Assembly: GCA_051313645.2 (NCBI GenBank)
Contig: JBNRSN020000904.1
Location: 1 to 64,000 of the forward strand
Direction of reading: 5' to 3'
Source of the DNA: Centroscyllium fabricii
Taxonomy: Eukaryota
Length of the DNA stretch: 64,000 nucleotides
Shown: positions 13,601-55,821 of the stretch, one piece after another
Numbering within the stretch: the first letter of the stretch is position 1
Layout: each line of letters starts with the position of its first letter
The notes under the pieces: model-generated
The model's database searches: none
The model's input: only the letters and a program-made list of their open reading frames with translations
Told to the model about the DNA's origin: nothing
Made by a program: the position numbers and the translations under genes

Positions 13601-16600
13601 GAGAGTCCATTCACAATGGGGACCTGTGAGAGTCCATTCACAATGGGGACCAGTGAGGGTCCATTCACAATGAGGACCTGTGAGAGTCCATTCACAATGG
13701 GGGCCTGTGAGAGTCCATTCACAATGAGGTCTTGTGAGAATAGATTCACAATGGGGGCCTGTGAGAGTCCATTCACAATGGGGACCTGTGAGAGTCCATT
13801 CACAATGAGGACCTGTAAGAATCCATTCACATTGCGGATCTGTGAGAGTCCATTCACAATGAGGACCTGTGAGAGTCCATTCACAATGGGAACCTGTGAG
13901 AGTCCATTCACAATGAGGACCTGTGCGAGTCCATTCACAATGGGGAGCTGTGAGAATCCATTCACAGTGGGGACCTGTGAGAATCCATTCACAATGAGGA
14001 CCTGTGAGAGTCCATTCACAATGAGGACCTGTCAGAGTCCATTCACAATGAGGACCTGTGAGAATCTATTCACAATGAGGACCGGTGAGAGTCCATTCAC
14101 AATGAGGACCTGTGAGAATCCATTCACAATGGAGACCTGTGAGAGTCTATTCACAATGAGGATCTGTGAGAGACCATTCACAATGAGGACCTGTGAGAGT
14201 CCATTCACAATGGAGACCTGTGAGTCTCTATTCACAATGAGGATCTGTGAGAGACCATTCACAATGGGGACCCGTGAGAGACCATTAGCAATGAGGACCT
14301 GTGAGAGTCCATTCACAATGAGGACCTGTGAGAGTCCATTCATAATGGGGACCCGTGAGAGACCATTCACAATGGAGACCTGTGAGTGTCTATTCACAAT
14401 GAGGATCTGTGAGAGTCCATTCACAATGGGGACCCGTGAGAGATCATTCACAATGGGGACCTGTGAGAGTCCATTCACAATGGGGACCTGTGAGAGTCCA
14501 TTCACAATGAGGACCTGTGAGAGTCCATTCACAATGAGGGCCTGTGAGTGTCCATTAACAATGGGGACCTATGAGAGTCTATACACAATGGGGACCTGTG
14601 AGAGTCCATTCACAATGAGGGCCTGTGAGTGTCCATTAACAATGGTGACCTGTGAGAGTCCATTCACATTGCGGTCCTGTGAGAGTGCATTCACAATGAG
14701 GACCTGTGAGAGTCCATTCAAAATGGGGACCTGTGAGAGCCCTTTCACAATGAGTACCTGTGAGAGTCCATTCAAAATGAGGATCTGTGAGAGTCCATTC
14801 ACAATGAGGACCTGTGCGAGTCCATTCACAATGGGGAGCTGTGAGTATCCATTCACAATGGGGACCCGTGAGAGTCCATTCACAATGGGGACCTGTGAGA
14901 GTCCATTCACAATGGGGACCTGTGAGAGTCCATTCACAATGGGGACCTGTGAGGGTCCATTCACAATGGGGACCTGTGAGAATCCATTCACAATCAGGAC
15001 CTGTGAGAGCCCATTCACAATGGGGACCCGTGAGAGTCCATTCACAATGGGGACCTGTGAGGGTCCATTCACAATGGGGACCTGTGAGAGTCCATTCACA
15101 ATGAGGACCTGTGAGAGTCCATTCAAAATGGGGACCTGTGAGGGTCCATTCACAATGAGGACCTGTGACAATCCATTCACAATGGGGACCTATGAGAGTC
15201 CATTCACAATGGGGACCTATGAGAGTCCATTCACAATGGGAACCTGTGAGAGTCCATTCACAATGGGGACCTGTGAGGGTCCATTCACAATGAGGACCTG
15301 CGAGAATCTATTCACAATGGGGACCTATGAGAGTCCATTCACAATGGGGACCTGTGAGAGTCCATTCACAATGGGGACCTGTGAGGGTCCATTCACAATG
15401 AGGACCTGCGAGAGTCCATTCACAATGGGGACCTATGAGAGTCCATTCACAATGGGGACCAGTGAGAGTCCATTCACAATGGGGACCTGTGAGTGTCCAT
15501 TCACAATGGGGACCTGTGAGAGTCCACTCACAATGAGGACCATTGAGAGTCCATTCACAATGAGGACCTGTGAGAATCCATTCACAATGTGGACCAGTGA
15601 GAGTCCATTCACAATGGGGACCAGTGAGAGTCCATTCACAGTAGGGACCTGTGAGAGTCCATTCACACTGAGGACCAGTGAGAGTCCATTCACAATGAGG
15701 ACCTGTGAGAGTCCATTCACAGTAGGGACCTGTGAGAGTCCATTCACACTGAGGACCAGTGAGAGTCCATTCACAATGAGTACCTGTGAGAATCCATTCA
15801 CAATGAGGACCAGTGAGAGTCCATTCACAATGAGGACCTGTGAGAGTCCATTCACAATGAGGACCTGTGAGAGACCACACACAATGAGGACCTGTGAGAG
15901 TCCATTCACAATGAGAACCTGTGAGAGACCATTCAGAATGGGGACCTGTGAGAATCCATTCACAATGAGGACCTGTGAGAGTCCATTCACAATGGGGGCC
16001 TGTGAGAATAGATTCACAATGGGGACCTGTGAGAGTCCATTCACAATGGGGACCTGTGAGAGTCCATTCACAATGGGGACCTGTGAGAGTCCATTCACAA
16101 TGGGGACCAATGAGGGTCCATTCACAATGAGGACCTGTGAGAGTCCATTCACAATGGGGACCTGTGGAAGTCCATTCACAATGGGGACCTGTGAGAGACC
16201 ACTCACAATGAGGACCTGTGAGAGTCCATTCACAATGGGGACCTGTGAGAGTCCATTCACAATGGGGACCTATGAGAGTCCATTCACAATGAGGACCTGT
16301 GAGAATCCATTCACAATGAGGAACAGTGAGAGTCCATTCACAATGGGGAACTGTGAGAGTCCATTCACAATGAGAACCTATGAGAGACCATTCACAACGA
16401 GGACCTGTGAGAGTCCATTCACAATGAGGACCTGTGAGAATCCATTCACAATGAGGAAAAGTGAGAGTCCATTCACAAAGAGGACCTGTGACAATCTATT
16501 CACAATGGGGACCTGTGAGAGTCCATTCACAATGGGGACCTGTGAGAGTCCATTCACAATGGGGACCAGTGAGGGTCCATTCACAATGGGGACCTGTGAG

Positions 16601-19600
16601 AGTACATTCACAATGAGGACCTGTGAGAATCCATTCACAATGAGGACCTGTGAGAGTCCATTCACAATGGGGACCTGTGAGAGTCCGTTCACAATGAGGA
16701 CCTGTGAGAGTCCATTCACAATGGGGACCTGTTAGAATCCATTCACAATGGGGGCCTCTGAGAGTCCATTCACAAAGAGGACCTGTGAGAGTCCATTCAC
16801 AATGGAGACCTGTGGAAGTCCATTCACAATGGGGACCTGTGAGAGACCACTCACAATGAGGACCTGTGAGAGTCCATTCACAATGGGGACCTGTGAGAGT
16901 CCATTCACAATGGGGACCTATGAGAGGCCATTCACAATGAGGGCCTGTGAGAATCCATTCACAATGAGGAACAGTGAGAGTCCATTCACAATGGGGAACT
17001 GTGAGAGTCCATTCACAATGAGAACCTATGAGAGACCATTCACAACGAGGACCTGTGAGAGTCCATTCACAATGAGGACCTGTGAGAATCCATTCACAAT
17101 GAGGAAAAGTGAGAGTCCATTCACAAAGAGGACCTGTGACAATCTATTCACAATGGGGACCTGTGAGAGTCCATTCACAATGGGGACCTGTGAGAGTCCA
17201 TTCACAATGGGGACCAGTGAGGGTCCATTCACAATGGGGACCTGTGAGAGTACATTCACAATGAGGACCTGTGAGAGTACATTCACAATGAGGACCTGTG
17301 AGAATCCATTCACATTGGGGACCTGTGAGAGTCCATTCACCATGAGGACCTGTGAGAATCCATTCATATTGGGGACCTGTGAGAGTCCATTCACAATGAG
17401 GGCCTGTGAGAGTCCATTCACAATGGGGACCTGTGAGAGTCCATTCAGAATGGGGACCTGTGAGAGTCCATTCACAATGGGGACCTGTTAGAATCCATTC
17501 ACAATGGGGGCCTGTGAGAGTCCATTCAAAATGGGGACCAGTGAGAGTCCATTCACATTGGGGACCTCTGAGAGTCCATTCACAATGGGGACCTGTGAGA
17601 GTCCATTCACAATGGGGACCTGTGAGAGTGTATTCACAATGGGGACCTGTGAGAGTCCATTCACAATGTGGGCCTGTGAGAGTCCATTCAAAATGGGGAC
17701 CAGTGAGAGTCCATTCACATTGGGGACCTCTGAGAGTCCATTCACAATGGGGACCTGTGAGAGTCCATTCACAATGGGGACCTGTGAGAGTGTATTCACA
17801 GTGGGGACCTGTGAGAGTCCATTCACAATGTGGGCCTGTGAGAGTCCATTCACAATGGGGCCCTGTGAGAGTCCATTCACATTGGGGGCCTGTGAGAGCC
17901 CATTCACAATGGGGACCTGTGAGAGTCCATTCACATTGGGGGCCTGTGAGAGTCCATTCACATTGAGGACCTGTTAGAATCCATTCACAATGGGGACCTG
18001 TGAGAGTCCATTCAGAATGGGGACCTGTGAGAGTCCATTCACAATGGGGACCTGTTAGAATCCATTCACAATGGGGGCCTGTGAGAGTCCATTCACAATG
18101 GGGGCCTGTGAGAGTCCATTCACAATGAGGTCTTGTGAGAATCCATTCACAATTGGGACCTGTGTGAATCCATTCACAATGGGGGCCTGTGAGAGTCCAT
18201 TCACAATGAGGTCTTAGACAATAGACAATAGACATTTACGGCACTTGAACAGGCCAGCCGGCCTACAAGTCGTGCCGCCCGATCCCTCCAGCTTCCCTTC
18301 TAATACCCTTCTCTCCCCATGTGGATATCCAGTTTCCTCTTGAACGCCTCCAGGCTGCCTGCCTCTACAATCCGTGCCGGCAGCCTATTCCAATCTCCCA
18401 CAACCCTCTGCGTGAAGAACCCCCCTCTTCCATCCCTTCTGAACTTTCCTCCCTGTATTTTATACTTGTGACCTCTCGTTCCTATCTCCCCCATCCTTGG
18501 AAACAGTCTCTGTATGTCCACCTGGTCAATGCCCTTCATCATTTTGAATACCTCTATCAGGTCTCCCCTTGCCCTTCTTCTCTCCAGAGTGAACAGCCCC
18601 AGTTGCCCCAGCCTCTCCTCGTACGTCTTCCCTCCCATCCCCGGCAGCATCCTCGTGAATCTCCTCTGCACCCTCTCCAGAGTCTCCACGTCCTTCCTGT
18701 ACCTCGGTGCCCAGAACTGAACGCAGTATTCCAAGTGCGGTCGTACCAGCGTTGTATACAGCCTCATCAACACCTCTCTGTCCCTAAACTCCAGGCCCCT
18801 ATTGATGAATGCCAGTATCCCATAGGCCTTCTTTGCTGCCCTGTCCACCTGTGCGGCCACCTTCAGTGACCTCTGCACATACACCCCCAGATCTCTCTGC
18901 TCCTCCGTTTCCTTTAACACTTTTCCGTTTAGTCTGTATTCCCTCCTTCCGTTCTTGCTGCCAAAATGCATCACCTCACATTTCCCAGCATTGAACTCCA
19001 TCTGCCATCTCTCAGCCCATCCCTGCATTCTTTCTATATCCCTCTGTAGTCTCTCCCCTCCTTCTTCCTCATCCACTTCCCCTCCAATTTTAGTATCGTC
19101 CGCAAACTTACTGACCCACCCCTCTGTTCCTTCCTCCAAGTCATTTATGAAGATAGCGAACAGTAGTGGACCCAGCACTGATCCCTGTGGGACCCCGCTG
19201 GTGACCGGTCTCCAACTGGAGTAACATCCATCCACTACCACTCTCTGTCTCCTTTGCGCCAGCCAGTTCTCTATCCAGTTAGCTATTCCCTCATTTACCC
19301 CACATCCCCTTACTTTCCTCATCAGTCTTCCATGTGGAACTTTATCAAAGGCCTTGCTGAAATCCATATAGATTACATCAACCGCCTTCCCTTCATCCAC
19401 ACTCCTGGTCACTTCCTCAAAGAACTCTATCAGATTTGTCAGGCACGATTTGCCCTTCACAAATCCGTGTTGACTGCTCCTAATGAATTTAACCTCTTCT
19501 AAGTGCCTATACACCCTATCCCTCAGTACCCTCTCCATTACTTTTCCCACCACTGAGGTCAGGCTGACCGGTCTGTAGTTTCCCGGTTCCTCCCTGGACC

Positions 19601-22600
19601 CTTTCTTAAATAGTGGTCTTGTGAGAATCCATTCACAATGGGGAACTGTGAGAATCCATTCACAATGGGGACCTGTGAGAGTCCATTCACAATGAGGACC
19701 TGTGAGAATCCATTCACCATGAGGACCTGTGAGAGTCCATTCACAATGGGGACCTGTGAGAGTCCGTTCACAATGAGGACCTGTGAGAGTCCATTCACAA
19801 TGGGCACCTGTTAGAATCCATTCACAATGGGGGCCTGTGAGAGTCCATTCACAATGAGGACCTGTGAGAATCCATTCACAATGAGGACCTGTGAGAATCC
19901 ATTCAGAATGAGGACCTGTGAGAATCGATTCACAATGAGGACCTGTGAGAGTCCATTCACAATGAGGTCTTGTGAGAATAGATTCACAATGGGGACCTGT
20001 GAGAGTCCATTCACAATGGGGACCTGTGAGAGTCCATTCACAATTAGGACCTGTGAGAATCCATTCACAATGAGGACCTGTGAGAATCCATTCACAATGA
20101 GGGCCTGTGAGAGTCCATTCACAATGAGGACCTGTGAGAGTCCATTCACAATGGAGACCTGTGAGTCTCTATTCACAATGAGGATCTGTGAGAGACCATT
20201 CACAATGGGGACCCGTGAGAGACCATTAGCAATGAGGACCTGTGAGAGTCCATTCACAATGAGGACCTGTGAGAGTCCATTCATAATGGGGACCCGTGAG
20301 AGACCATTCACAATGGAGACCTGTGAGTGTCTATTCACAATGAGGATCTGTGAGAGTCCATTCACAATGGGGACCCGTGAGAGACCATTCACAATGGGGA
20401 CCTGTGAGAGTCCATTCACAATGGGGACCTGTGAGAGTCCATTCACAATGAGGACCTGTGAGAGTCCATTCACAATGAGGGCCTGTGAGTGTCCATTAAC
20501 AATGGGGACCTGTGAGAGTCTATACACAATGGGGACCTGTGAGAGTCCATTCACAATGAGGGCCTGTGAGTGTCCATTAACAATGGGGACCTGTGAGAGT
20601 CCATTCACATTGCGGTCCTGTGAGAGTGCATTCACAATGAGGACCTGTGAGAGTCCATTCACAATGGGGACCTGTGAGAGCCCTTTCACAATGAGTACCT
20701 GTGAGAGTCCATTCACAATGAGGATCTGTGAGAGTCCATTCACAATGAGGACCTGTGCGAGTCCATTCACAATGGGGAGCTGTGAGTATCCATTCACAAT
20801 GGGGACCCGTGAGAGTCCATTCACAATGGGGACCTGTGAGAGTCCATTCACAATGGGGACCTGTGAGAGTCCATTCACAATGGGGACCTGTGAGGGTCCA
20901 TTCACAATGGGGACCTGTGAGAATCCAGTCACAATCAGGACCTGTGAGAGTCCATTCACAATGGGGACCCGTGAGAGTCCATTCACAATGGGGACCTGTG
21001 AGGGTCCATTCACAATGGGGACCTGTGAGAGTCCATTCACAATGAGGACCTGTGAGAGTCCATTCAAAATGGGGACCTGTGAGGGTCCATTCACAATGAG
21101 GACCTGTGACAATCCATTCACAATGGGGACCTATGAGAGTCCATTCACAATGGGGACCTATGAGAGTCCATTCACAATGGGAACCTGTGAGAGTCCATTC
21201 ACAATGGGGACCTGTGAGGGTCCATTCACAATGAGGACCTGCGAGAATCTATTCACAATGGGGACCTATGAGAGTCCATTCACAATGGGGACCTGTGAGA
21301 GTCCATTCACAATGGGGACCTGTGAGGGTCCATTCACAATGAGGACCTGCGAGAGTCCATTCACAATGGGGACCTATGAGAGTCCATTCACAATGGGGTC
21401 CAGTGAGAGTCCATTCACAATGGGGACCTGTGAGTGTCCATTCACAATGGGGACCTGTGAGAGTCCACTCACAATGAGGACCATTGAGAGTCCATTCACA
21501 ATGAGGACCTGTGAGAATCCATTCACAATGTGGACCAGTGAGAGACCATTCACAATGGGGACGAGTGAGAGTCCATTCACAGTAGGGACCTGTGAGAGTC
21601 CATTCACACTGAGGACCAGTGAGAGTCCATTCACAATGAGGACCTGTGAGAGTCCATTCACAGTAGGGACCTGTGAGAGTCCATTCACACTGAGGACCAG
21701 TGAGAGTCCATTCACAATGAGTACCTGTGAGAATCCATTCACAATGAGGACCAGTGAGAGTCCATTCACAATGAGGACCTGTGAGAGTCCATTCACAATG
21801 AGGACCTGTGAGAGATCACACACAATGAGGACCTGTGAGAGTCCATTCACAATGAGAACCTGTGAGAGACCATTCAGAATGGGGACCTGTGAGAATCCAT
21901 TCACAATGAGGACCTGTGAGAGTCCATTCACAATGGGGGCCTGTGAGAATAGATTCACAATGGGGACCTGTGAGAGTCCATTCACAATGGGGACCTGTGA
22001 GAGTCCATTCACAATGGGGACCTGTGAGAGTCCATTCACAATGGGGACCAATGAGGGTCCATTCACAATGAGGACCTGTGAGAGTCCATTCACAATGGGG
22101 ACCTGTGGAAGTCCATTCACAATGGGGACCTGTGAGAGACCACTCACAATGAGGACCTGTGAGAGTCCATTCACAATGGGGACCTGTGAGAGTCCATTCA
22201 CAATGGGGACCTATGAGAGTCCATTAACAATGAGGACCTGTGAGAATCCATTCACAATGAGGAACAGTGAGAGTCCATTCACAATGGGGATCTGTGAGAG
22301 TCCATTCACAATGAGAACCTATGAGAGACCATTCACAACGAGGACCTGTGAGAGTCCATTCACAATGAGGACCTGTGAGAATCCATTCACAATGAGGAAA
22401 AGTGAGAGTCCATTCACAAAGAGGACCTGTGACAATCTATTCACAATGGGGACCTGTGAGAGTCCATTCACAATGGGGACCTGTGAGAGTCCATTCACAA
22501 TGGGGACCAGTGAGGGTCCATTCACAATGGGGACCTGTGAGAGTACATTCACAATGAGGACCTGTGAGAATCCATTCACAATGAGGACCTGTGAGAGTCC

Positions 22601-25600
22601 ATTCACAATGGGGACCTGTGAGAGTCCGTTCACAATGGGGACCTGTGAGAGTCCATTCACAATGGGGACCTGTTAGAATCCATTCACAATGGGGGCCTGT
22701 GAGAGTCCATTCACAAAGAGGACCTGTGAGAGTCCATTCACAATGGGGACCTGTGGAAGTGCATTCACAATGGGGACCTGTGAGAGACCACTCACAATGA
22801 GGACCTGTGAGAGTCCATTCACAATGGGGACCTGTGAGAGTCCATTCACAATGGGGACCTATGAGAGTCCATTCACAATGAGGGCCTGTGAGAATCCATT
22901 CACAATGAGGAACAGTGAGAGTCCATTCACAATGGGGAACTGTGAGAGTCCATTCACAATGAGAACCTATGAGAGACCATTCACAACGAGGACCTGTGAG
23001 AGTCCATTCACAATGAGGACCTGTGAGAATCCATTCACAATGAGGAAAAGTGAGAGTCCATTCACAAAGAGGACCTGTGACAATCTATTCACAATGGGGA
23101 CCTGTGAGAGTCCATTCACAATGGGGACCTGTGAGAGTCCATTCACAATGGGGACCAGTGAGGGTCCATTCACAATGGGGACCTGTGAGAGTACATTCAC
23201 AATGAGGACCTGTGAGAGTACATTCACAATGAGGACCTGTGAGAATCCATTCACATTGGGGACCTGTGAGAGTCCATTCACAATGAGGACCTGTGAGAAT
23301 CCATTCATATTGGGGACCTGTGAGAGTCCATTCACAATGAGGGCCTGTGAGCGTCCATTCACAATGGGGACCTGTGAGAGTTCATTCACAATGGGGACCT
23401 GTGAGAGTCCATTCACAATGGGGACCTGTGAGAGTCCATTCAAAATGGGGACCAGTGAGAGTCCATTCACATTGGGGACCTCTGAGAGTCCATTCACAAT
23501 GGGGACCTGTGAGAGTCCATTCACAATGGGGACCTGTGAGAGTGTATTCACAATGGGGACCTCTGAGAGTCCATTCACAATGTGGGCCTGTGAGAGTCCA
23601 TTCACAATGGGGACCTGTGAGAGTCCATTCAAAATGGGGACCAGTGAGAGTCCATTCACAATGGGGACCTGTGAGAGTCCATTCACATTGGGGGCCTGTG
23701 AGAGTCCATTCACATTGAGGACCTGTTAGAATCCATTCACAATGGGGACCTGTGAGAGTCCATTCAGAATGGGGACCTGTGAGAGTCCATTCACAATGGG
23801 GACCTGTTAGAATCCATTCACAATGGGGGCCTGTGAGAGTCCATTCACAATGGGGGCCTGTGAGAGTCCATTCACAATGAGGTCTTGTGAGAATCCATTC
23901 ACAATGGGGACCTGTGTGAATCCATTCACAATGGGGGCCTGTGAGAGTCCATTCACAATGAGGTCTTGTGAGAATCCATTCACAATGGGGAACTGTGAGA
24001 ATCCATTCACAATGGGGACCTGTGAGAGTCCATTCATAATGAGGACCTGTGAGAATCCATTCACAATGAGGACCTGTGAGAGTCCATTCACAATGGGGAC
24101 CTGTGAGAGTCCGTTCACAATGAGGACCTGTGAGAGTCCATTCACAATGGGCACCTGTTAGAATCCATTCACAATGGGGGCCTGTGAGAGTCCATTCACA
24201 ATGAGGACCTGTGAGAATCCATTCACAATGAGGACCTGTGAGAATCCATTCAGAATGAGGACCTGTGAGAATCGATTCACAATGAGGACCTGTGAGAGTC
24301 CATTCACAATGAGGTCTTGTGAGAATAGATTCACAATGGGGACCTGTGAGAGTCCATTCACAATGGGGACCTGTGAGAGTCCATTCACAATGAGGACCTG
24401 TGAGAATCCATTCACAATGAGGACCTGTGAGAATCCATTCACAATGAGGACCTGTGAGAGTCCATTCACAAGGAGGACCTGTGAGAGTCCATTCACAATG
24501 AGGACCTGTGCGAATCCATTCAAAATGGGGACCTGTGAGAGTCCATTCACAATGAGAACCTATGAGAGTCCATTCACAATGAGGACCTGTGAGAGTCCAT
24601 TCACAATGAGGACCTGTGAGAATCCATTCACAATGTGGACCTGTGAGAATCCATTCACAATGAGGACCTTTGAGAGTCCATTCACAAGGAGGACCTGTGA
24701 GAGTCCATTCACAATGAGGACCTGTGAGAATCCATTCACAATGAGGACCTGTGAGAATCCATTCACAATGAGGACCTGTGAGAATCCATTCACAAGGAGG
24801 ACCTGTGATTGTCCATTAACAATGAGGACCTGTGAGAATCCATTCACAATGAGGACCTGTGAGAGTCCATTCACAATGGGGACTAGTGAGGATCCATTCA
24901 CAATGGGGACCTGTGAGAATCCATTCACAATGAGGACCTGTGAAATCGATTCACAATGAGGACCTGTGAGAGTCCATTCAAAATGGGGACCTGTGATAGT
25001 CCATACACAATGGGGACCAGTGAGGGTCCATTCACAATGGACACCTGTGAGGATCCATTCACAATGAGGACCTGTGAGAGTCCATTCACAATTAAGACCT
25101 GTGAGAGTCCATTCACAATGAGGACCTGTGAGAGTCCAGTCACAATGTGCACCTGTGAGAATCCATTCACAATGAGGACCTTTGAGTGTCCATTCACAAT
25201 GGAGACCTGTGAGAATCCATTCACAATGAGGAGCTGTGAGAATGCATTCACAATGGGCACCTGTGAGAATCTATTCAGAGTGACGACTGTGAGTTTCCAT
25301 TCACAATGAGGACTTTTGAGAATCCATTCATAATGGAGACCTGTGAGAATCCATTCACAATGAGGAGCTGTGAGAATGCATTCACAATGAGGACCAGTGA
25401 GGGTCCATTCACAATGAGGACCTGTGAGAATCCATTCACAATGGAGAACTGTGAGAGTCCATTCACAATGAGGACCTGTGAGAGTCCATTCACAATGAGG
25501 ACCTGTGAGAGTCCATTCACAATGAGGACCTGTGAGAGTCCATTCACAATGAGGACCTGTGAGAGTCCATTCACAATGGGGCCTGTGAGAATCTATTCAC

Positions 25601-28600
25601 AATGAGGACCTGTGAGAGTCGATTCACAATGAGGACCTGTGAGAGACCATTCACAATGAGGACCTGTAAGAGTCTATTAACAATGAGAACCTGTGAGAGA
25701 CCATTCACAATGGGGTCCTGTGAGAGACCATTCACAATGAGGACCTGTAAGAGTCCATTCACAATGGGGACCTGTGAGAGTCCATTCACAATGGGGACCT
25801 GTGACCATCTATTCAGAGTGAGGACCTGTGAGAGTCCATTCACAATGGGGACCTGTGAGAGTCCATTCACAATGGGGACCTGTGAGAGACCATTCACAAT
25901 GAGGACCTGTGAGAGTCCATTCACAATGGGGACCTGTGACCATCTATTCAGAGTGAGGACCTGTGAGAGTCCATTCACAATGGGGACCTGTGAGAGTCCA
26001 TTCAAAATGGGGACCTGTGAGAGTCCATTCACAATGAGGACCTGTGAGAGACCATTCACAATGAGGACCTGTGAGAGTCTATTAACAATGAGAACCTGTG
26101 AGAGACCATTCACAATGAGGACCTGTAAGAGTCTATTAACAATGAGAACCTGTGAGAGACCATTCACAATGGGGACCTGTGAGAGACCATTCACAATGAG
26201 GACCTGTGAGAGTCCATTCACAATGGGGACCTGTGACCATCTATTCAGAGTGAGGACCTGTGAGAGTCCATTCACAATGGGGACCTGTGAGAGTCCATTC
26301 AAAATGGGGACCTGTGAGAGTCCATTCACAATGAGGACCTGTGAGAGTCTATTAACAATGAGAACCTGTGAGAGTCCATTCCCAATGGGGGCCTATGAGA
26401 ATCCATTCACAATGGGGACCTGTGAGAGTCCATTCACAATGGGGACTTGTGAGAATCCATTCACAATGGGGACCTGTGAGAGTCCATTCACAATGGGGAC
26501 CTGTGAGAATCCATTCACAATGGGGACCTGTGAGAGTCCATTCCCAATGGGGGCCTATCAGAATCCATTCACAATGGGCACCTGTGAGAGTCCATTCACA
26601 ATGGGGACCTGTGAGAATCCATTCACAATGGGGTCCTGGAAGAGTCCATTCACAATGGGGACCAGTGAGTGTCCATTCACAATGGGCACCTGTGAGATTC
26701 CATTCACAATGGAGACCTGTGAGAGTCCATTCACAGTAGGGACCTGTGAGTGTCCATTCACAATGAGGACCTGTGAGAATCCATTCACAATGGGGACCTG
26801 TGAGAGTCCATTCACAATGAGGACCTCTGAGAGTCCATTCACAATGGGGACCTGAGAGAGTTCATTAACAATGAGGACCTGTGAGAGTCCAGTCCATTCA
26901 CAATGATGACCTGTGAGAGTCCATTCACAATGAGGACGTGTGAGAGTCCATTCACAATGAGGACCCGTGAGAGTCCATTCACAATGGGGACCTGTGAGAG
27001 TCCATTCACAATGATGACCTGTGAGAGTCCATTCACAATGGAGACCTGTGAGAGTCTATTCACAATGAGGACCTGTGAGAGTCCATTCACAATGAGGACC
27101 CGTGAGAGTCCATTCACAGTGGGGACATGTGAGAGTCCATTCACAATGGGGACCTGTGAGAATCCATTCACAATGGGGACCTGTGAGAGTCCATTCACAA
27201 TGAGGACCTTTGAGAGTCCAGTCCATTCACAATGATGACTTGTGAGAGTCCATTTACAATGAGGACATGTGAGAATCCATTAACAATGAGGACGTGTGAG
27301 AGTCCAATCACAATGAGGACCTGTGAGAGTCCATTCACAATGAGGACCTGTGAGAGTCCATTCACAATGGGGACCAGTGAGGGTCCATTCACAATGGGGA
27401 CCAGCGAGTGTCCATTCACAATGGGGACCTGTGAGATTCCATTCACAATGGAGACCTGTGAGAGTCCATTCACAATGAGGACCTGTGAGAGTCCATTCAC
27501 AATGGGGACCTGTGAGAATTCATTCACAATGGTGACCTGTGAGAGTCCATTCACAATGAGGACCTGTGAGTGTCCATTCACAATGGGGACCTGTGAGAGT
27601 CCATTCACAATGGAGACCTGTGAGAGTCCATTCACAATGAGGACCTGTGAGAGTCCATTCACAATGAGGACCTTTGAGCGTCTATTCACAATGGGGACCA
27701 GTGAGGGTCCATTCACAATGGGGACCAGCGAGTGTCCATTGACAATGGGGACCTCTGAGATTCCATTCACAATGGAGACCTGTGAGAATCCATTCACAAT
27801 TTGGACTGTGAGAGTCCATTCACAATGAGGACCTGTGAGAGTCCATTCACAATGAGGCCATGTGAGAATCCATTCACAATGGAGACCTGTGAGAATCCAT
27901 TCATAATGAGGTCCTGTGAGATTCCATTCACAATGAGGACCTCTGAGAGTCCATTCACAATGAGGACCTGTGAGAGTCCATTCACAATGGGGACCTGTGA
28001 GAGTCCTTTCACAATGAGGACCTGTGAGATTCCATTCACTATGAGGACCTCTGAGAGTCCATTCACAATGGGGACCTGTGAGAGTCCTTTCACAATGAGG
28101 ACCTGTGAGAGTCCATTCACAATGAGGACCTGTGAGAGTCCATTCTCAATGGGGACCTGTGAGAATCCATTCACAATGAGGACCTGTGAGAGTCCATTCA
28201 AAATGAGGATCTGTGAGAGTCCATTCACAAGGGAGACCTGTGAGAGTCTATTCACAATGAGGATCTGTGAGAGTCCATTCACAATGGGGACCCTTGAGAT
28301 TCCATTCACAATGGGGACCTATGAGAGTCCATTCACAATGTGGACCTGTGAGGGTCCATTCAAAATGAGGACCTGTGAGAGTCCATTCACAATGGGGACC
28401 TGTGAGAGTCCATTCACAATGGGGACCTATGAGAGTCCATTCACAATGAGGACCTGTGAGAGTCCATTCACAATGGTGACCTGTGAGAATCCATTCACAA
28501 TGGGGACCTGTGAGAGTCCATTCACATTGAGGACCTGTGAGAATCCATTCACAATGAGGACCTGTGAGAGTCCATTCACAATGGTGACCTGTGAGAGTCC

Positions 28601-29420
28601 ATTCACAATGGGGACCTGTGAGAGTCCATTCACCATGTGGACCTGTGAGAATCCATTCACAATGGGGACCTGTGAGAGTCCATTCACCATGTGGACCTGT
28701 GAGAATCCATTCACAATGAGGACCTGGGAGAGTCCATTGAGAAGTTGGACCTGTGAGAGTCCATTCACAATGTGTACCTGTGAGAGTCTATTCACAATGA
28801 GGATCTGTGAGAGTCCATTCACAATACGGACCTGTGAGAATCCATTCACAATGAGGACCTGTGAGAGTCCATTCACAATGGGGACCTGTGAGAGTCCATT
28901 CACAATGGGGACCTGTGAGAATCCATTCACAATGAGGACGTGTGAGAGTCCATTCACAATGAAGACCTGTGAGAGTCCATTCACAATGTGGACCTGCGAG
29001 ATTCCATTCACAATGAGGACCTGTGAGAGTCTATTCAGAATTTGGACCTGTGAGGGTCCATTCACAATGAGGATCTGTGAGATTCCATCCACAATGGGGA
29101 CCTGTGAGAATCCATTCAGAATTTGGACCTGTGAGAGTCCATTCACAATGAGGACCTGTGAGAATCCATTCACAATGAGGACCTGTGAGAGTCCATTCAC
29201 AATGAGGAAAAGTGAGAGTATATTAAGAATGAGGACCTGTGAGAGTCCATTCACAATGAGGACCTATGAGAGTCCATTCACAATGTGGAAAAGTGAGAGT
29301 CCATTAAGAATGAGGACCTGTGAGAGTCCATTCACAATGAGGACCTATGAGAGTCCATTTACAATGAGGAAAAGTGAGAGTCCATTCACAATGAGGATCT
29401 GTGAGAGTCCATTCACAATG
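10630..29420. repeat. 27-bp satellite array, about 640 units, with higher-order duplications
   Basis: Consensus GAGAGTCCATTCACAATG(G/A)GGACCTGT; interrupted only at 18216-19614. Confidence 0.98.
18216..19614 (-). mobile_element. Young 5'-truncated CR1 LINE inserted in the satellite
   Basis: Uninterrupted RT frame (GNYRPVSLTS, DFSKAFDKVPH, GVPQGSVLGP, KFADD); TSD GGTCTT at 18210-18215 and 19615-19620; TCTATTG-type tail. Confidence 0.95.
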
Positions 29421-31926
29421 TGATCTCCCGGGAGATGCGAAAAACCAGATAAAAACCCCAGTGGCCAATTTGGGAGAAAAAAATCTGGGAAATTCCTCTC
29501 CGACCCATCTAGGCGATCGAAACTTGTCCAGGAGATCACATGGCCAATCTGAACCAAGCCTCACATTCACTTACCTGCCCGCTCACCGTAACCCCTAATT
29601 ACCTTTAGTTTCAAGAAACTGTCAATCTCGGTTTTAAATTTATTTAATGTCCCAGCTTCCACAGCTCTCTGGGGCAGCAAATTCCACAGCCGCACCACCC
29701 TCTGAGTGAAGAAGTTCCTCCTCATCTCAGTTTTGAAAGGGCAGCCCCTTATTCTCAGATTATGCCCCTGATACCGTATCAATGACCTCGGAGACGAGAA
29801 GTTACGAGGTGAACAAAGGCTTTTATTCGCTAAAGGTTGGGCATGCACCAGCTAGTCGACTGCTCCCGGAATGAATGTGGGGAGGGAGACAGTCACCTTT
29901 CTACCTGTCCTGGGAGGAGGAGTCACAGGCGGGGTTAGCATGGGCATGCCCAGACAAGCAGTACACACAGAACTATATACAGTATTACAGGCCATGGATA
30001 TATACACAAAGTGGTTTACCACATTCACCCCTTGTTAAAAAACAAAGTCCTGGCGGGGCGAATGCAGTGCAGTCCTTAAAGATTAAGCCTGTCGGGCGGC
30101 CTGGTCTGCCTCGTCGAGCGGCGCACCGCTGTTGGTGGAGTCGGCGACAGCGGGGTCGGCGAGGGCGTTCGATCCAATGCTTGGCCCCTTGCGGTAACAA
30201 TCAGGGGCGCGCTCTCCCATTCGTCATCCGGCTGGCGGGTGCGTAGATTAGGGGGCCGTACTGTGCTGCCTGCAGGTGCTGGGTGGGCATACCGTGGTGC
30301 TGGTGCCTCGTGGGGAGCAGCGTACCGTGGTGCCGGTGCCCAAAAGGTGGCGGTAGGCGGGGGGGGGGGGGGGGGGGGGCTGCGGGCTGATGGGTCGTAC
30401 TGGTCTCGGGGGCACCCGCGGGTGCCAGGTCCTTGATGGACACCGTATCCTACCTCCCGTCGGGGTACGCCACGTAGGCGTACTGGGGGTTGGCATGCAG
30501 GAGGTGGACCTGTTCGACCAGGGGGTCCGACTTATGGCCCCTCACGTGCCTCCGGAGCAGGATGGGTCCTGGGGACAATAGCCTTGACGGCAGCGAGGTC
30601 CCTGAAGCCGACTTCCTAGGGAAGGCAAAAAGTCGCTCGTGAGGGGTGGCGTTAGTGGCCATACATAAAAGTGACCGAATGGAGTGGAGCGCTTCGGGGA
30701 GGACGTCCTGCCAGCGGGAGACTGGGAGGCCTTTAGACCGTAGGGCTAACAGGATGGCCTTCCAGACCGTGGCGTTCTCCCTCTCTACCTGTCCGTTCCC
30801 CCGGGGGTTATAGCTGGTAGTCCTGCTGGTAGCGATGCCTTTGGCTAGCAGAAACTGACGCAGCTCGTCACTCATAAAAGAGGCCCCCCGGTCGCTATGG
30901 ATGTAGCTGGGGTAGCCGAACAGGGAGAAGATGCTGTGCAGTGCCCTGATGACCGTGGAGGAGGTCATGTCCGGGCAGGGGATGGCGAAGGGGAAACGTG
31001 AGTACACGTCAATGACGTTTAAGAAGTACACGTTTCGGTTGGACGAGGGGAGGGGCCCTTTAAAGTCGACACTGAGTCGCTCAAAGGGGCGGGTGGCCTT
31101 GATCAGGTGTGCCCGGTCCGGCCAGAAGAAGTGCGGCTTGCACTCCGCACAGACCCGGCAGTTCCTGGTCATGGTCTTGACCTCCTCGATGGAGATGGGG
31201 AGGTTGCGGGACTTAACGAAATGGACCAACCTGGTGACCCCCGGGTGGCAGAGGTCGTTGTGCAGGGCCTGGAGACGGTTCACTTGTGCGCTGGCACATG
31301 TACCGTGGGACAGGGCATCTGGGGGCTCATTGAATTTCCCGGGCCGGTACAAGATATCATAATTGAAAGTGGAGAGTTCGATTCTCCAGCTCAGTATCTT
31401 GTCATTCTTGATTTTACCCCGCTCTTTGTTGTTGAACATGAACGCGACTGAGCGTTGGTCAGTCAGCAGGGTAAATCGTTTACCGGCCAGTTAGAGCTTC
31501 CAGTGTCGCACTGCTTCAACAATGGCCTGGGCCTCCTTCTCCACGGAAGAGTGTCGGGTCTCGGGGCCCTGGAGGGTGCGCGAGAAGAAGGCCACGGGTC
31601 TACCCGCCTGGTTAAGGGTGGCGGCCAGGGCAAAGTCGGACGCATCGCTCTCTACCTGGAACGGGACGGCCTCATCCACAGCGTGCATCGCGGCCTTTGC
31701 AATGTCTTGTTTTATGCCGCAGAAGGCCGTGCGGGCCTCTGCCGACAGGGGAAAGGAGGTTGATTTGAGTAGTGGGCAGGCTTTGTCCGCATAATTGGGG
31801 ACCCACTGGGCATAATAAGAAAAGAACCCCAGGCACCTTTTCAGGGCCTTGAGGGAGTGGGGGAAGGGGAGCTCCAGGAGGGGGCGCATGCGGTCCGGGT
31901 CGGGACCGATGACCCCATTCTCCACA

Positions 31927-32350
31927 ACTCGTTGGAGTTTAGAAGATTGAGAGGCGATCTCATTGAGACGTATAAAATTCTGAAAGGTCTGGACAGGTTA
32001 GACTCAGAGAGAATGTTTCCAATGGCAGGGGAGTCCAGAACCAGGGGCCACGGTCTAAGAATAAGGGGTAAGCCATTTAGGACAGACATGAGGAAGAATT
32101 TCTTCACTCAGAGAGTGGTGGGCCTGTGGAATTCCTTGCCACAGAGGGCGGTGGAGGCCAGTTCATTAAACATATTCAAGAGGGAATTGGATATATTTCT
32201 TCAAGCTAAAGTGATTAAAGGTTACGGAGAAAAGGCGGGGACGGGGTACTAGCTTGCTAAAGATCAGCCATGATCTCATTGAATGGCGGAGCAGGCTCGA
32301 AGGGCTGAATGGCCTACTCCTGCTCCTATCTTCTATGATTCTATGATTCT
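31927..32350 (+). mobile_element. CR1 3' end inserted in the Gypsy RT
   Basis: LEFRRLRGDLIETYK..; (TTCTATGA)n tail; separates LAILGSV from ENGVIGPDPD. Confidence 0.9.
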
Positions 32351-34275
32351 ATGATAACACTGCCGAGGATGGCGAGGCGGGTTGTCCTGAACACACATTT
32401 GTCCGTGTTATAGGTCAGGTTCAGATTTTTGGCGGTGTGGAGAAATTTCTGGAGGTTGGTGTTGTGGTCCTGCTGGTCGTGGCCGCAGATGGTCACATTA
32501 TCAAGATACGGAAAGGTGGCCCGCAGTCCGTACTGATCAACTATTCGGTCCATCTCTCTTTGGAAGACCGAGACCCCGTTGGTGACACCAAACGGAACCC
32601 TGAGGAAGTGATAGAGGCGGCCGTCTGCCTCGAAAGCAGTATAGTGGCGGTCCTCTGAGCGGATGGGGAGCTGGTGGTACGCAGACTTCAGATCGATGGT
32701 CGAGAAGACCCGATACTGGGCGATCTGGTTCACCATATCCGCTATGCGGGGGAGGGGATACACATCCAGTTGCGTAAACCGGTTAATGGTCTGACTGTAG
32801 TCCACAACCATCCGCTGTTTGGCTCCGGTCTTCACAACCACTACCTGCGCCCTCCATGGGCTATTACTGGCCTCGATGACCCCCTCCTTCAGGAGCCGCT
32901 TCACCTCAGACTTGATGAAGTCTCTGTCCCCGGTACTGTAGCACCTACCTTTGGTGGCGACGGGCTTGCAGTCCGGGGTGAGGTTGGTGAAGAGCGAGGG
33001 GGTTGACCTTAAGGGTCGAGAGGCCGCAGGTAGCGCGCTGTGGGTACTGCGGGGAGTGCTGGTTGCTGACCGTGAGCGGGGGAAGGGGCCCACCGTACGC
33101 CACAGTCATGCTCTAGAGGTGACATTGGAAGTCGAGGCCCAGCAGTAAGGGAGCGCAGAGCTGCGGCAGCACGAATACTTTAAAATTCTGGAAGTGCACG
33201 CCCCGCACTGTCAGGGTCACTACGCAGCGACCGCAGACATCCGCAGATTTGGACTTAGATGCCATCGAGATTTTTTGGGTAGCCGGTATGACTGTAAGGG
33301 AGAAGCGCTTTACCGTATCTGGGTGGATGAAGCTCGCCGTGCTCCCGCTGTTGAAAAGGCAATCCGTACTCCGCCCGTTCACCTGCACCATCATCATCGA
33401 TTTGCTCAGAGGCTGGCTCCTGTTCTGGTCGAGTGTGATGGAGGCCAGTATCGGGTCGGTCGAGTTGGTTGAGATGTCTGGGGCCTGGTCCCAAGATGGC
33501 TGCCGCCACGCGGCGTGCTGTGTGGAAGATGGTCGTGTCCAAGATGGCTGCCCCCACGGCCCACACACGGCGCTGCCCGGTTTGGAGGACGGTTTTGCCG
33601 CTGCTCTGCAGACCTTTGCGTAGTGGCCCTTCTTACCGCACTTAGAGCAGGCCGCGTCTCTCGCTGGGCAATTTCGCCTGGGGTGCTGGGCCTGGCCGCA
33701 GAAGTAGCATTTAGGCCCTTTTGGGGTCGTAGCCGCAGTCATCTCTTCCGCCGGTCGCAGTGTGGCCGGCTGTGTCCAAGATGGCGGCGTCCGCGATGTG
33801 CCCGCGTGGTCGCCCGAGTAAGAGGACATATTATGGGACGCCAAGTCCAGCGTGTTCCCAAGTTCAATTGTCGCCGTCAGGTCCATACCATTCTGCTCCA
33901 ACAGTCTCTGGCGGATATAATCGGACCTGAGGCCAGTCACATAGGCGTCCCTGATGAGACTGTCCGAGTGCACCAAGGCTGTCTGTGACTTACAGTTGCA
34001 GGCCTGGCAGGGGACCCTCAGCGCTTGTAGGAACTCCACGCTCGATTCCCCGGGTTGTTGCTTTCTGGTGGCCAGGAGGTGTCTGGCGTGGACGATGTTC
34101 AGTGCCCAGGTATACTCGCCCTTCAGGATTCGGGCCGCCTCTATGTAGGATGTAGCATCCGCGATTATAGAGTAGACTTGGGGGCCCACCCGGGCGTTGA
34201 GAAGGCGCAGCTTGTCCTTGTCCGTCTGGACAATCGCCGCGGTGGCTTCGAGGTGTGCCTCAAAGCAGCTGAACC

Positions 34276-35198
34276 TGTAACGGTTTGGTGGTGGGGCCCA
34301 AATGCAAGACACCGGAAGTCAATCTAGCATTAAGATTCCTTTAATTCTCCAAACAATATATACACAAAGTCAATTATTACAATACAAAGATAAACGACAT
34401 TCATAATACGCTTCGGACCCCCAGCGAAGAGCATCAAAGAGTTAGGAACTAGAACAAGTTTTCCTCTGTGAGTAGAACCCTTTACAACGACTACTTCATC
34501 AGAGAGTTTTAGGAACAGAACAAGTTTTCTTCTGTGAGCAGAACCCTTTACAACGACTGCTTCATCAGAGAGTAGGAACTGGAACAAGTTTTCTTCTGTG
34601 AGTAGAACCCTTTACAACGACTACTTCATCAGAGTGTTTTAGGAACAGAACAAGTTTTCTTCTGTGAGCAGAATCCTTTACAACGACTGCTTCATCAGAG
34701 AGTAGGAACTGGAACAAGTTTTCTTCTGTGAGCAGAACCCTTTACAACGACTGCTTCATCAGAGAGCTTTATAATAACAGAATTAATGTCCAAACCTGAG
34801 TTCAGGTGATAGAGAGCAATGTCCAGAATGCAGAAACAGGAATTCTCCAGGGTCCGCTCCACCGAGGAGACTAACTCCAACAGAGCCTTCAGCAGGAGAA
34901 TCCATTTCTTCTACAAGCAGTTTCACCCCACTACACGACTGCCTCCTCAGAGCTAGGACAGCACATCTGTTTCCTAGTAGTAGATTTAACGATCCGGCAA
35001 TCTCCTGGTGTCAACCCAAGGCTTATATACAGCTCAAGCTAAATTGATTGATTAGCTCTGTCCCCTTAATTGCATGCAATAATAAACGAGGTACAATTTA
35101 GCTGTATTCACTGGAAAACGAGGTATAATGAATTTAAACAGAGAAAAGACCACAGAATTTAAAGATGGAATCCTTAAAGGAGAATTCCATCTATGACA
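34276..35198 (-). mobile_element. 923-bp solo LTR inserted in gag
   Basis: TG..CA ends, perfect TSD GAACC (34271-34275, 35199-35203); removing it restores gag SHWF-SCFEAH; TATATAA near 35025 and ATTAAA near 34340 on the minus strand. Confidence 0.85.
34444..34766. repeat. Tandem repeat with alternating 67/63-bp units inside the LTR
   Basis: AGGAAC starts at 34444,34511,34574,34641,34704. Confidence 0.9.
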
Positions 35199-35530
35199 GA
35201 ACCAGTGCGAAGACGTGTTAGAGGCGCCTGGTGTTTGGGGATCCAGTTCTAACGTCGCTGGTTTTAGCATGGTCTCCATGATTAATTTAGCGAATAAAAT
35301 TGATACCGTATCAATGACCTCGGAGATGAGAAGTTACGAGGTGAATAAAGGCTTTTATTCACTAAAGGTTGGGCATGCACCAGCTAGTCGACTGCTCCCG
35401 GAATGAGTGGGGGGAGGGAGACAGTCACCTTTATACCGGTCCTGGGAGGAGGAGTCACAGGCAGGGTTAGCATGGGCATGCCCAGACAAACAGTACACAC
35501 AGAATTATAGACAATATTACAGGTCATGGA

Positions 35531-35759
35531 TGATGTGACATAAGCGACTTACACATCAAATACTTTAAGCAAAGCTTTAATCAGCTATTTACAGAGTTGA
35601 GAGTTTTAACATATTTACATGGAGAAGCATTATCTCAGACTGAATAGCAGCAGAATTTATACTACTACACAGGAAGTGACATGTACAGGAAGTGATGTCA
35701 CTGGAAGTTCATAAGCAGAGTTCATCCGACTTCCTGCCGGAAGTCTCAATATCATTACA
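35531..35759 (-). mobile_element. Solo LTR inserted in the 5' LTR of the Gypsy
   Basis: Absent from the 3' LTR; TG..CA ends; TSD ATGGA/TTGGA. Confidence 0.75.
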
Positions 35760-36377
35760 TTGGATATATACACAAAGTGGTTTACCACAGCCCCCTAGTT
35801 CTAGTCTCACCCATCAGTGGAAACATCCTCACCGCATCCACCCAATCAAGCCCCTTCACAATCTTATATGTTTCGATAAGATCGCCTCTCACTCTTCTGA
35901 ACTCCAATGAGTAGAGGCCCAATCTACTCAACCTTTCCTCATAAGTCAACCCCCTCATCTCCGGAATCAACCGAGTGAACCTTCTCTGAACTGCCTCGAG
36001 AGCAAGTATATCCTTTCTCAAATATGGAAACCAAACCAGTACGCAGTATTTCAGGTGTGGCCTCACCAGTACCCTGTATAACTGCAGCAAGACTTCCCTG
36101 TTTTTATAGTCCATCCCCCTTGCAATAAAGGCCAAGATTCCATTGGCCTTCCTGATCACCTGCTGTACCTGCAGACTAACCTTCTGTGTTTCCTGCACCA
36201 GGACCCCCAGACCCCTTTGTACTTTAGAACTTTGAAGTTTCTCTCCATTCAGATAATAATTTGCTCTTTGTTCAGATGATCCGCTTCTAACTTCAAAGCA
36301 TTTTACAACATGTTTCATAACCTTTTCTGTGTTCAGTTTTTAAACTAACACAATTCCAACATGATTTTTCAAACAGA

Positions 36378-38154: not shown

Positions 38155-38825
38155 TGATACACTATCTATAACTCCAAAAGACTAGAAGTTATGCAAGTAA
38201 TAGACAGGCTTTTATTCGCTAAAGAACAGGAGCACACCTCTGCTGATTGACTGGTCCAGGACTGAAGGGGGGTTGGGAGACGATCACCTTTATACCTGGG
38301 TCCGGGGGAGGAGCCCCAGACGGAGTCAGCAGGGGCATGCCCAGGCAGGTTACATGCAACAGGTAGAGTGAACTATAATACAGTACATAGAAACATAGAA
38401 GATAGGAGCAGGAGTCGGCCATTGGGCCCTTCGAGCCTGCTCCGCCATTCAATGAGATCATGGCTGATCATCCAAACCCAGTACCCCGTCCCTGCCTTGT
38501 CCCCATATCCCTCGATCCCTATCGAGCCTGCACCGACACATATCCCACCCTATCCCCGCAACCCCACACATTCAATCCCCCTAACACTAAGGGTCAACTT
38601 ATCCTGGCCAATCAACCTAACCTGCACATCTTTGGACTGTGGGAGGAAACCGGAGCACCCGGAGGAAACCCACGCAGACACGGGGAGAATGTGCAAACTC
38701 CACACAGATAGTCACCCGAGGCTGGATTTGAACCCGGGTCTCCAGAGCTGTAAGGCAACAGTGCTAACCACTATGCCACCGTGCCGTACAGAGTGAACTA
38801 TAATACAATACAGTGGTTTACCACA
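38155..38825 (-). mobile_element. Solo LTR related to the 29769 Gypsy LTR, containing an HE1 SINE
   Basis: TGATAC..GGCTTTTATTCGCTAAAG..GTGGTTTACCACA; TSD CAGGG/TAGGG. Confidence 0.75.
38385..38787 (-). mobile_element. HE1-like V-SINE
   Basis: Reverse complement of the 5838 family; flanked by duplicated AGAGTGAACTATAATACA. Confidence 0.88.
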
Positions 38826-44873: not shown

Positions 44874-45155
44874 TGTGGTAACTGTAATTACCACTGTAAA
44901 TAGTTAAGCACACTATAGACCAGCATGTATAGTGGCTGGGTGCATTGTACATAGTTTTGTATCACGACACTGTCGCGAGGTCAGGTCAGCCACACCTCTA
45001 ACTCCTCCCCTCAGGTGAGTGCCTCATAGGTGGGGTTTGACCTGCCCCCATTCATTCTGTACTCGATGTTCGACTGGAGAGTAGCTCCATTGTAAAGTGA
45101 ATAAAAGCCTCCAGTTAAGGTAACTACTCGTCTTTGCTTCATTGACGATACGTCA
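44874..45155 (+). mobile_element. Solo LTR (same family as 49621-49901)
   Basis: TG..CA; perfect 5-bp TSD TGCAC. Confidence 0.85.
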
Positions 45156-47672: not shown

Positions 47673-47920
47673 TGATGCGCCAATCAATCACGCCAGTCTT
47701 TCGTGGATCGTAATCAAAGGCTTTTATTCGCTAAGAACAAGACCTGGTCCGCGATGAGTCCTGCCCGGAATGAGAGTCAGGTGGGCGGAGCATCCTCCTT
47801 TATACTCATACCCGGAGGCGGGGTCAGCTGGTCCAGGTGCTTACAGAAAGGAACAACTTTATTAACACAAACTATATACAATAATAACACAGTGTGAACT
47901 TCACTAAATGGTTCACCACA
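47673..47920 (-). mobile_element. Solo LTR
   Basis: TG..CA; TSD GATGG/GATGA; GGCTTTTATTCGCTAA motif. Confidence 0.75.
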
Positions 47921-49591: not shown

Positions 49592-49901
49592 CTCCATTTT
49601 AATTTTAAAGCTAATAAAATTGACGTATCGTCAATAATACAAAGACGAGTAGTTACCTTAACTATAGGCTTTTATTAGCTTTACAAAGGAGCTACGCTCC
49701 GGTCGAACATCAGGTACAGAATGAATGGGGGCAGGTCAGACCCCACCTATAAGGCACTCACCTGAGGGGAGGAGTTAGAGGTGTGGCTGACCTGACCCCG
49801 CGACAGTGTCGCAATACAAAGCTGTGTATAGTGCACCCAGCCGCTATACATGCTGGTTTATATTGTGCTTCACTATTACAGTGGTAATAACGGTTACCAC
49901 A
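49592..49901 (-). mobile_element. Gypsy 5' LTR (49621-49901) with retained leader and ATG, otherwise truncated
   Basis: Homologous to 44874-45155; followed on the minus strand by ATTTTATTAGCTTTAAAATTAAAATGGAG. Confidence 0.75.
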
Positions 49902-54780: not shown

Positions 54781-55440
54781 TCAATTCAATTCAATTCAAT
54801 TCAAGTTTTATTGTCATTGCAGAGAACTAGTACAATACAACGAGACGAAGACTCGACGCTCCCGAGAGTAGTGCAAATAAATTACATGCAAATTGCATAC
54901 AGTAAAGTTCATTGTCAGGCGTGCAGGTACCGGAGTTTCTTTTTAGAGTTCAGGAGGCTGACAGCCCTGGGGAAGAAGCGGTTCTGAAATCTGGTCGTGC
55001 GGGTGCGAATTGCTCTGTAGCGTCTCCCGGAGGGGAGGGGTGCGAACAGACTGTGGCTGGGGAGTGTGGGGTCTTTAATAATGTTCAGAGACCTCCGTAA
55101 GCAGCGTTTGAGGTAGATGCTTTCCATTGACGGTAGCTGGGTACCGGTGATTCGTTGGGCAGTTTTGACTACCCGCTGCAGGGTTTTCCGGTCCGAGATA
55201 GTGCAATTTCCATACCAGACTGTGATGCAGCTTGTCAGTATGCTTTCTATTGTGCAGCGGTAGAAGTTGGAGAGGATGCCGGATGACAGCCTGGCTTTCT
55301 TCAGCTTCCTTAGGAAGTATAGGCGCTGTTGGGCCTTCTTAACCAGAGAGGAGGTGTTTAGTGACCAGGAGAGATCTTCCGAGATGTGGACCCCGAGGAA
55401 CTTGAAGCTGGACACCCTTTCCACCTCAGCCCCTTTCTGT
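54781..55440 (-). mobile_element. Rex1/Babar-like LINE 3' end
   Basis: VERVSSFKFLGVHISEDLSWS..KKAQQRLYFLRKL..CTIESILTSCITVWYG; (AATTG)n tail. Confidence 0.85.
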
Positions 55441-55821
55441 TGTTTCACTCGCTCCCCCTGAATCGTCTCGGAGACCTGGGCTCCGGGGGCCGCATTGGAA
55501 GGCCCTGGGCCTACCCTGGTCCGACGCCATGCTGCCCCCCCCCCCCCGCTGAGCTCCGAACTCCGGGGGCAGCGCCCGGAGGCCTGTGACCAGCCTCTCG
55601 GGCTCCAGCAATTGGGGTCCACTGAGATCGGGACTTTCCGAGAGACTGGGGCAATCCGCTGGGAGTGAGGGTCCACATGGAATGTGGGAACGGATGGGGC
55701 ACACAGCTTCCTGTTACAGAACGTGTCGCTGCCCACATACCCTTCTCCTTCCACCCCCACTGACTATATGAAGCATTGTCCTCCGAGCTGTGTGAATAAT
55801 CCTGTGTTCTGCCCTCTTTAG

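Follow-up and report, generated by a model that had tools for sequence, protein, structure and literature searches.

Ty3/Gypsy retrotransposons related to a defective copy in the genome of Centroscyllium fabricii probably prime their own reverse transcription, with a segment of the LTR taking the place of a tRNA; on the sequence evidence, this is the best explanation of the complementarity between the LTR and the leader that follows it. The LTR-leader complementarity itself is real, clade-wide and not due to chance. It was first seen in a stretch of 64,000 nucleotides (positions 1 to 64,000 of contig JBNRSN020000904.1, forward strand; hereafter the window), where the leader pairs with an LTR segment that contains a poly(A)-type hexamer. 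Two further proposals made for this helix, that its LTR strand lies inside the transcript and that it masks the poly(A) signal of the 5' LTR, are graded separately below.

A self-complementary leader in a defective element

The element that we call family 1 occupies positions 29769-35789 on the minus strand, is interrupted by nested insertions and has a 5-bp target-site duplication. TG...CA LTRs, a short target-site duplication and a polypurine tract are Ty3/Gypsy traits present in it, and its Pfam domains (gag zinc knuckle, protease, reverse transcriptase, RNase H and integrase) follow the Gypsy order. The 5' LTR (35301-35789) is split by a solo LTR at 35531-35759 and shares 94% identity across 231 nt with the 255-bp 3' LTR (29769-30023). 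A purine-rich tract at 30024-30036 abuts the 3' LTR and, from its position, is the likely polypurine tract. Gag, with two zinc-knuckle motifs, and protease are encoded at 33113-35279, reverse transcriptase and RNase H at 31491-33105, and integrase with a C-terminal tail at 30076-31490, all on the minus strand. This copy is dead. Solo LTRs of 229 bp and 923 bp have inserted into its 5' LTR and its gag, respectively, a dispersed repeat lies in pol (at about 31927-32345, inside the reverse transcriptase and RNase H region), and the reading frames carry stops and frameshifts. The 923-bp solo LTR (34276-35198, minus strand) belongs to a different family, has a 5-bp target-site duplication of its own and contains an internal 64/130-bp tandem repeat.

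The initial annotation had reported that the nucleotides right after the 5' LTR are the reverse complement of the AATAAA-containing LTR segment, and all of its coordinates were verified. The primer-binding site at 35286-35299 is the exact reverse complement of 29821-29834 in the 3' LTR, and it pairs with the corresponding segment of the 5' LTR at 35353-35366 (AATAAA at 35354-35359) with one G-U pair, as had been noted. The 5' LTR segment, hereafter the partner, is the candidate 3' end of a self-primer, and the predicted cut that would release it falls between 35353 and 35352. The leader begins one base (35300) past the terminal CA of the LTR and lacks TGG, which confirms the reported absence of a TGG-type site. 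Similarly, the ATG after the leader proved to be the gag start: the first codons, from 35279-35277, align with the N-terminus of the relatives, and the gene is broken downstream.

The G-U pair of the family 1 5' LTR appears to be specific to the window copy and a minority state. At 35361, the fully pairing base holds 78-87% of the summed contig depth in all four public runs, which come from one study with two samples and are possibly the source of the window. At 35292, within the primer-binding site, contigs of the four runs contain a variant at 15-19%; a matching LTR variant is hinted at by loose ends and is unphased.

A second element, family 2, is truncated shortly past its gag ATG (49597-49901, minus strand), with the LTR at 49621-49901 and the ATG at 49597. 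Its primer-binding site (49606-49619) and partner (49670-49683) pair perfectly over 14 nt, exactly as first described. Family 2 is also represented by a solo LTR on the plus strand (44874-45155) with a 5-bp target-site duplication. Solo LTRs of like design represent family 3 (38155-38387), family 4 (47673-47920) and family 5 (35531-35759), all on the minus strand; the last of these is the 229-bp LTR nested inside the family 1 5' LTR, and its hexamer has the ATTAAA form. In all, five LTR families of self-complementary design lie inside 20 kb of the window, and two of the five (families 1 and 2) have kept the leader.

A hairpin across the U5 end, which had been quoted for both families, fared less well. 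A form with 7 bp and a 3-nt loop is predicted, with a probability of 0.72 in family 2 and of 0.16 in family 1, where it would be weak (35299-35315, minus strand). The hairpins as quoted had their letters taken from the antisense strand, and a 1-nt loop cannot form. As a trait of the clade the U5-end hairpin was rejected: it is not conserved, and across 24 families the helix did not exceed that in shuffled sequences.

Several other features of the window were recorded. A tandem array of 18.8 kb with a 27-bp unit (10630-29420, about 695 copies, 83% matches) follows a 33-bp array at 10130-10620. An unrelated second fragment of Gypsy pol with reverse transcriptase and RNase H (about 62250-64000, minus strand) runs past the window end, and its reverse transcriptase motif is reminiscent of the CsRN1 clade. 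An open frame at 54918-55763 (minus strand) in a repeat-rich region has a strong Pfam match to ALKBH8_N (E 3e-19) and is probably part of a dispersed repeat. Within the window, Rfam gave no matches and ARAGORN no tRNA genes.

Pairing and covariation across the clade

Relatives were collected by their Gag protein only, using an alignment of 10 Gag-containing proteins among the 120 listed. In metagenome contigs, 457 pattern matches contained 341 relatives, the best 80 of which were taken, as 79 loci; a Gag scan of genome contigs added 9 further loci, and 35 pattern matches in viral contigs contained no relatives. We used 74 of these 88 loci, having excluded 14 with a match starting no earlier than query residue 48; the two window leaders brought the total to 76 sequences. 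A perfect inverted repeat of at least 11 bp near the gag start was present in 59 of the 76, against shuffle means of 5-7. Intact relatives measure 4.0-4.5 kb, with LTRs of about 120-310 bp. One locus with an LTR of about 120 bp (L080, match at 6001-7035) is on a contig assigned to a bacterial metagenome-assembled genome and is most likely misbinned host DNA.

The 76 sequences formed 29 families at 78% DNA identity, each represented by its best-pairing member. A helix of 12-20 bp, anchored exactly one base past the CA, was present in 24 of the 29 families at a threshold of at least 12 bp, and none of the 24 has TGG at the primer-binding site. Conservation of the pairing in further families, on which the initial proposal had been made to depend, is thus observed. 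Five families fell below the threshold (L017, L028, L065, L075 and L077); one of them has a single internal mismatch, and by eye the other four look degenerate or clipped at a contig edge. A second repeat copy is present in 36 rows; in 10 of them the LTR match ends exactly at the CA, and in the other 26 it extends a few bases or is interrupted by contig ends or indels.

The pairing is specific to each family. With the same scanning freedom, the helix averaged 15.2 bp (12-20) within a family and 6.0 bp between families, and 2 of 552 cross-family pairs reached at least 12 bp. The initial claim of covariation was drawn from the two window families, which differ at about 2 of 14 positions and are too thin by themselves; family-specific pairing in 24 of the 29 families now carries it. 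When the Gag tree was used, columns 1-13 of the helix required 63 or more replacements of one Watson-Crick pair by another in 22 families (L070 and family 2 left out), on a tree that is weak, with 4 of 20 inner branches well supported. Columns 1-12 are paired through selection of the best member, but pairing continues above permutation at column 13 (23 of 24 families) and at column 14 (20 of 23).

Covariation need not reflect selection alone. Should the primer be copied into the cDNA here as it is in Tf1, every cycle would renew the primer site from the LTR, and part of the covariation would be an effect of copying. A coordinated change of this kind is seen in L016, a young copy that has 97.8-98.9% identity to six sisters and differs by one change in the 5' LTR, the 3' LTR and the primer site together, which is what copying of the primer site from a self-primer would predict. 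Within families, 13 sites vary, of which 4 are compensatory and 9 one-sided; the latter would be explicable by decay after insertion or by either resolution of a mismatched site.

The junction at the inner end of the helix is nearly invariant. The last paired base is A in all 24 families, and the next is G in 20 and A in 4 (GCC in 16, ACC in 4). The partner ends in AAA at its 3' end in 22 of the 24, and position -10 is G in 22. The partner junction lies 23-71 nt from the LTR end in the 24 families, and the gag start 14-44 nt downstream of the helix. Folding predicted the helix in all 24 families, each time at a probability above 0.5 (median 0.97), and in 18 of the 24 a hairpin is predicted to stack on the junction, with a mean pairing of 0.69 compared with 0.30 for shuffled loops.

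Priming, transcription start and the poly(A) signal

tRNA-independent self-priming, as first proposed, is well supported by the family-specific pairing, the absence of TGG and the fixed helix junction. The primer defines the LTR end, and the complement begins one base past it; the partner is therefore best read as the primer. We propose that the LTR segment pairs with the site right after the 5' LTR, that the RNase H of the element likely cuts the segment free at its 3' end, and that the freed segment likely primes reverse transcription in place of a tRNA. [quoted passage not shown] A spliced primer was considered and rejected: splice-acceptor-like sites upstream of the junction occurred in 6 of 22 cases, with a shuffle mean of 5.2 (p 0.42).

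The initial annotation placed the partner internal to R, and the promoter motifs on which this placement now rests make it a reasonably likely one, with a predicted start 50-54 nt ahead of the junction. Counted from the junction, families 1-4 have a TATA-like box at -83 to -85 and, at -50 to -54, an initiator-like motif. In family 1 these are predicted at 35430-35435 (-83) and 35401-35406 on the minus strand, which would put the start at 35404 and the paired segment 38 nt downstream of it. The TATA-like box of family 2 is a poor match, the window families are related and hence do not amount to four independent promoter cases, and the pair at the window spacing is absent in most metagenome families. 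In family 5 the motifs lie at -86 and -66. If transcripts of the window families begin about 52 nt ahead of the junction, the primer would measure about 50 nt, of which only the final 14 nt would be paired.

Alternatively, these elements may have the plain geometry of Tf1, with transcription starting at or just before the paired segment, a primer consisting of the first 11-20 nt, and a very short R producing the overlap with the hexamer. The sharp stop of the pairing at 12-20 bp would equally suit a primer 5' end at that point, and the A at -11 (17 of 24 families) and G at -10, preceded by pyrimidines, resemble an initiator (consensus as in the available part of PMC3601003). The self-primers of fission-yeast elements, which lie at the RNA 5' end in the portion of PMC10085805 available to us, provide a precedent. 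Against this geometry, the TATA-like and initiator-like motifs about 30 nt apart in four of the five window families predict the upstream start, and pairing reaches 5-9 nt beyond -11 in 10 of 24 families (16-20 bp). A poly(A) hexamer within the first 11 nt would also be unusual. We regard a terminal primer of this kind as a possible arrangement, though not a likely one, and favour a partner inside the transcript. Contigs that start right at the partner segment were rejected as evidence on the start site, being explained by assembly overlap lengths.

The initial annotation further suggested that the helix could mask the poly(A) signal of the 5' LTR, which is possible and less well supported than self-priming. 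The partner ends in AATAAA in 7 of the 24 families, in ATTAAA in 9 and in a one-base variant in 6, and has no such hexamer in 2; of the 16 hexamer-bearing partners, only 1 has a canonical hexamer in the loop as well. With the leader included, the final 7 bases go from a predicted accessibility of 0.46 to one of 0.04, a drop seen in 23 of 24 families, which makes masking physically plausible. However, 8 of the 24 partners have neither AATAAA nor ATTAAA, and in 2 of these 8 families a canonical hexamer sits in the loop, outside the helix. One family has changed its hexamer to GAAGA with a compensatory change, keeping the helix, and the hexamer is only presumed, from its sequence, to be a working poly(A) signal. 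The claimed asymmetry between the LTRs is weakened as well, since a local hairpin is predicted to sequester the hexamer of the family 1 3' LTR too (unpaired 0.10). This hairpin is formed by the hexamer with the bases just after it (29813-29834 and 35341-35362, minus strand), is predicted to dominate in the 3' LTR and has a layout like that of the HIV-1 poly(A) hairpin.

Retroviruses (HIV-1, foamy virus and MoMLV) likewise have an identical poly(A) signal in both LTRs, and RNA structure is one solution to it. According to the available text of PMC3694450, they suppress the 5' site through U1 snRNP binding at the splice donor, through U3 enhancers or by having weak sites; a local hairpin is a further means, and they prime with a tRNA; in the present elements, by contrast, the occluding strand would be the primer-binding site itself. 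U3 enhancers or weak signals can give asymmetry without a helix (PMC3694450, same portion), which also tells against masking as the function for which the helix was selected, and we consider such a function doubtful. A simpler reason for the overlap of helix and hexamer would be that a poly(A) site soon after the cut supplies the strand-transfer overlap in LTRs of about 120-310 bp. Masking is possible, as a by-product or secondary benefit of self-priming, and the self-priming data do not require it.

A different source of the primer was also weighed: instead of the 5' end of the same molecule, it could be R in its 3' copy, another RNA molecule or a short transcript that terminated early. The partner, being in R, would be present at both RNA ends, sequence covariation is blind to which copy of R is used, and the 3'-terminal AAA of most partners might suggest a tail. 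However, the in-cis helix, at its median predicted probability, would form during transcription, cutting the 3' copy would lose the strand-transfer overlap, and the GAAGA family indicates that the terminal As are templated. This source is improbable, and we retain the 5' end of the same molecule as the primer. Still less probable is a helix that is purely structural, serving packaging, dimerisation or control of translation at the gag start while a tRNA fragment or other host RNA primes elsewhere: the helix lies close to the gag ATG and retroviral leaders form comparable long-range helices, but the LTR end must be defined by a primer, the complementarity starts one base past it in every paired family without TGG, and sites that vary by family, as the few cross-family matches attest, fit no single host RNA. 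Family-specific pairing likewise speaks against priming of the half-tRNA type, in which families would share a site complementary to an internal segment of a tRNA.

Relatives and known self-priming elements

The nearest named relatives of the window reverse transcriptase are from sharks and rays (79-84% identity), and named Gag relatives come from sharks, rays, Trichinella, Trichuris, spiders, a crab, a stick insect, Hydra and corals. All 14 full-length relatives have the pol order protease, reverse transcriptase, RNase H and integrase, and the best match among solved structures is Ty3 (E 7e-58). No chromodomain was found at E 0.01 in any of the 14, nor in the integrase frames of the window.

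The window reverse transcriptase (32341-33105, minus strand) has YLDN at the second catalytic motif where Ty3 has YLDD, as aligned through the relative P0134. YXDN was present in 102 of the 124 proteins with a readable motif (of 237) and in 37 of the 44 loci with a readable motif (of 88), and YXDN families include copies with identical LTRs. That self-pairing requires YXDN was rejected, as YXDD occurs in 3 of the 15 paired families whose motif could be read. In Ty1, the same substitution left polymerase activity in vitro, 223-fold slower, and abolished transposition, which was partly rescued by RNase H mutations (PMC2148107, available in part). No account of a natural YXDN clade was found in the literature searched.

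In the compared literature, self-priming among Gypsy elements is tied to Tf1/sushi chromoviruses (PMC7175516, PMC4600332 and PMC10085805, each available in part). Like Tf1, Tf2, Tj1 and Tf1/sushi elements generally, the elements described here have no tRNA site, the Gypsy order, a similar helix length and a primer-binding site right after the LTR CA that is complementary to an LTR segment. They differ in belonging to a clade without a chromodomain (14 of 14), in their one spacer base and in the YXDN reverse transcriptase of most relatives. Moreover, their partner is predicted to lie inside the transcript and overlaps a poly(A)-type hexamer, whereas the Tf1 primer is the 11-nt 5' terminus. The side helices of the three-duplex 'pretzel' described for Tf1 in the available part of PMC10085805 were not above chance in our families (6.2 compared with 5.7, and 4.4 compared with 4.6, in shuffles; 24 families, by a crude longest-helix test), and a local hairpin stacked on the junction is predicted instead.

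Self-priming has also been predicted for moss Tcn1 chromoviruses and for the plant TAR elements Houba and Osr-1, from complementarity of at least 10 bp between the LTR and the post-LTR sequence (PMC6317226). These show self-priming outside Tf1/sushi, yet Tcn1 groups with Tf1/sushi and TAR elements are Copia; both are plant lineages, and the available text of PMC6317226 reports no overlap with a poly(A) signal. We found no account of self-priming in a non-chromovirus animal Gypsy clade, although older subscription papers may hold one.

Protein names, the ESM Atlas and the supplements of PMC6238403 gave no sequence-based assignment of the clade to a name. A candidate home is the Cigr-1 clade, whose elements measure about 4.2 kb, with short LTRs and marine invertebrate hosts. 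Its hosts include Ciona, molluscs and annelids (PMC6238403 and PMC8556966); the likeness is one of size, LTR length and hosts, and priming is not mentioned in the available portions of these two papers. Barthez elements, at 7.3-8.8 kb (PMC11117352, available in part), do not fit relatives of 4.0-4.5 kb.

Taken to its full extent, the proposal is of a widespread animal Gypsy clade in which self-priming would have evolved independently of Tf1: an internal poly(A) signal in R would be captured co-transcriptionally, shielding the 5' LTR; a cut between A and G would yield a capped primer of about 50 nt; the hexamer of the 3' LTR would set the transfer overlap; and the reverse transcriptase would be a natural YXDN enzyme. 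We advance this composite tentatively, as it is unlikely to hold in every part. If self-priming is true of a clade that lacks the chromodomain and spans sharks and rays, nematodes, spiders, a crab, insects, Hydra and corals, then tRNA-free priming either arose again or is older. Self-primed elements would escape silencing by tRNA fragments at the primer site, and annotation tools for which a tRNA site is obligatory would overlook them. The fixed junction would offer a natural series of 24 substrates for the cutting of an RNA duplex by retroelement RNase H, and the natural YXDN enzymes bear on the role of the third catalytic aspartate of reverse transcriptase.
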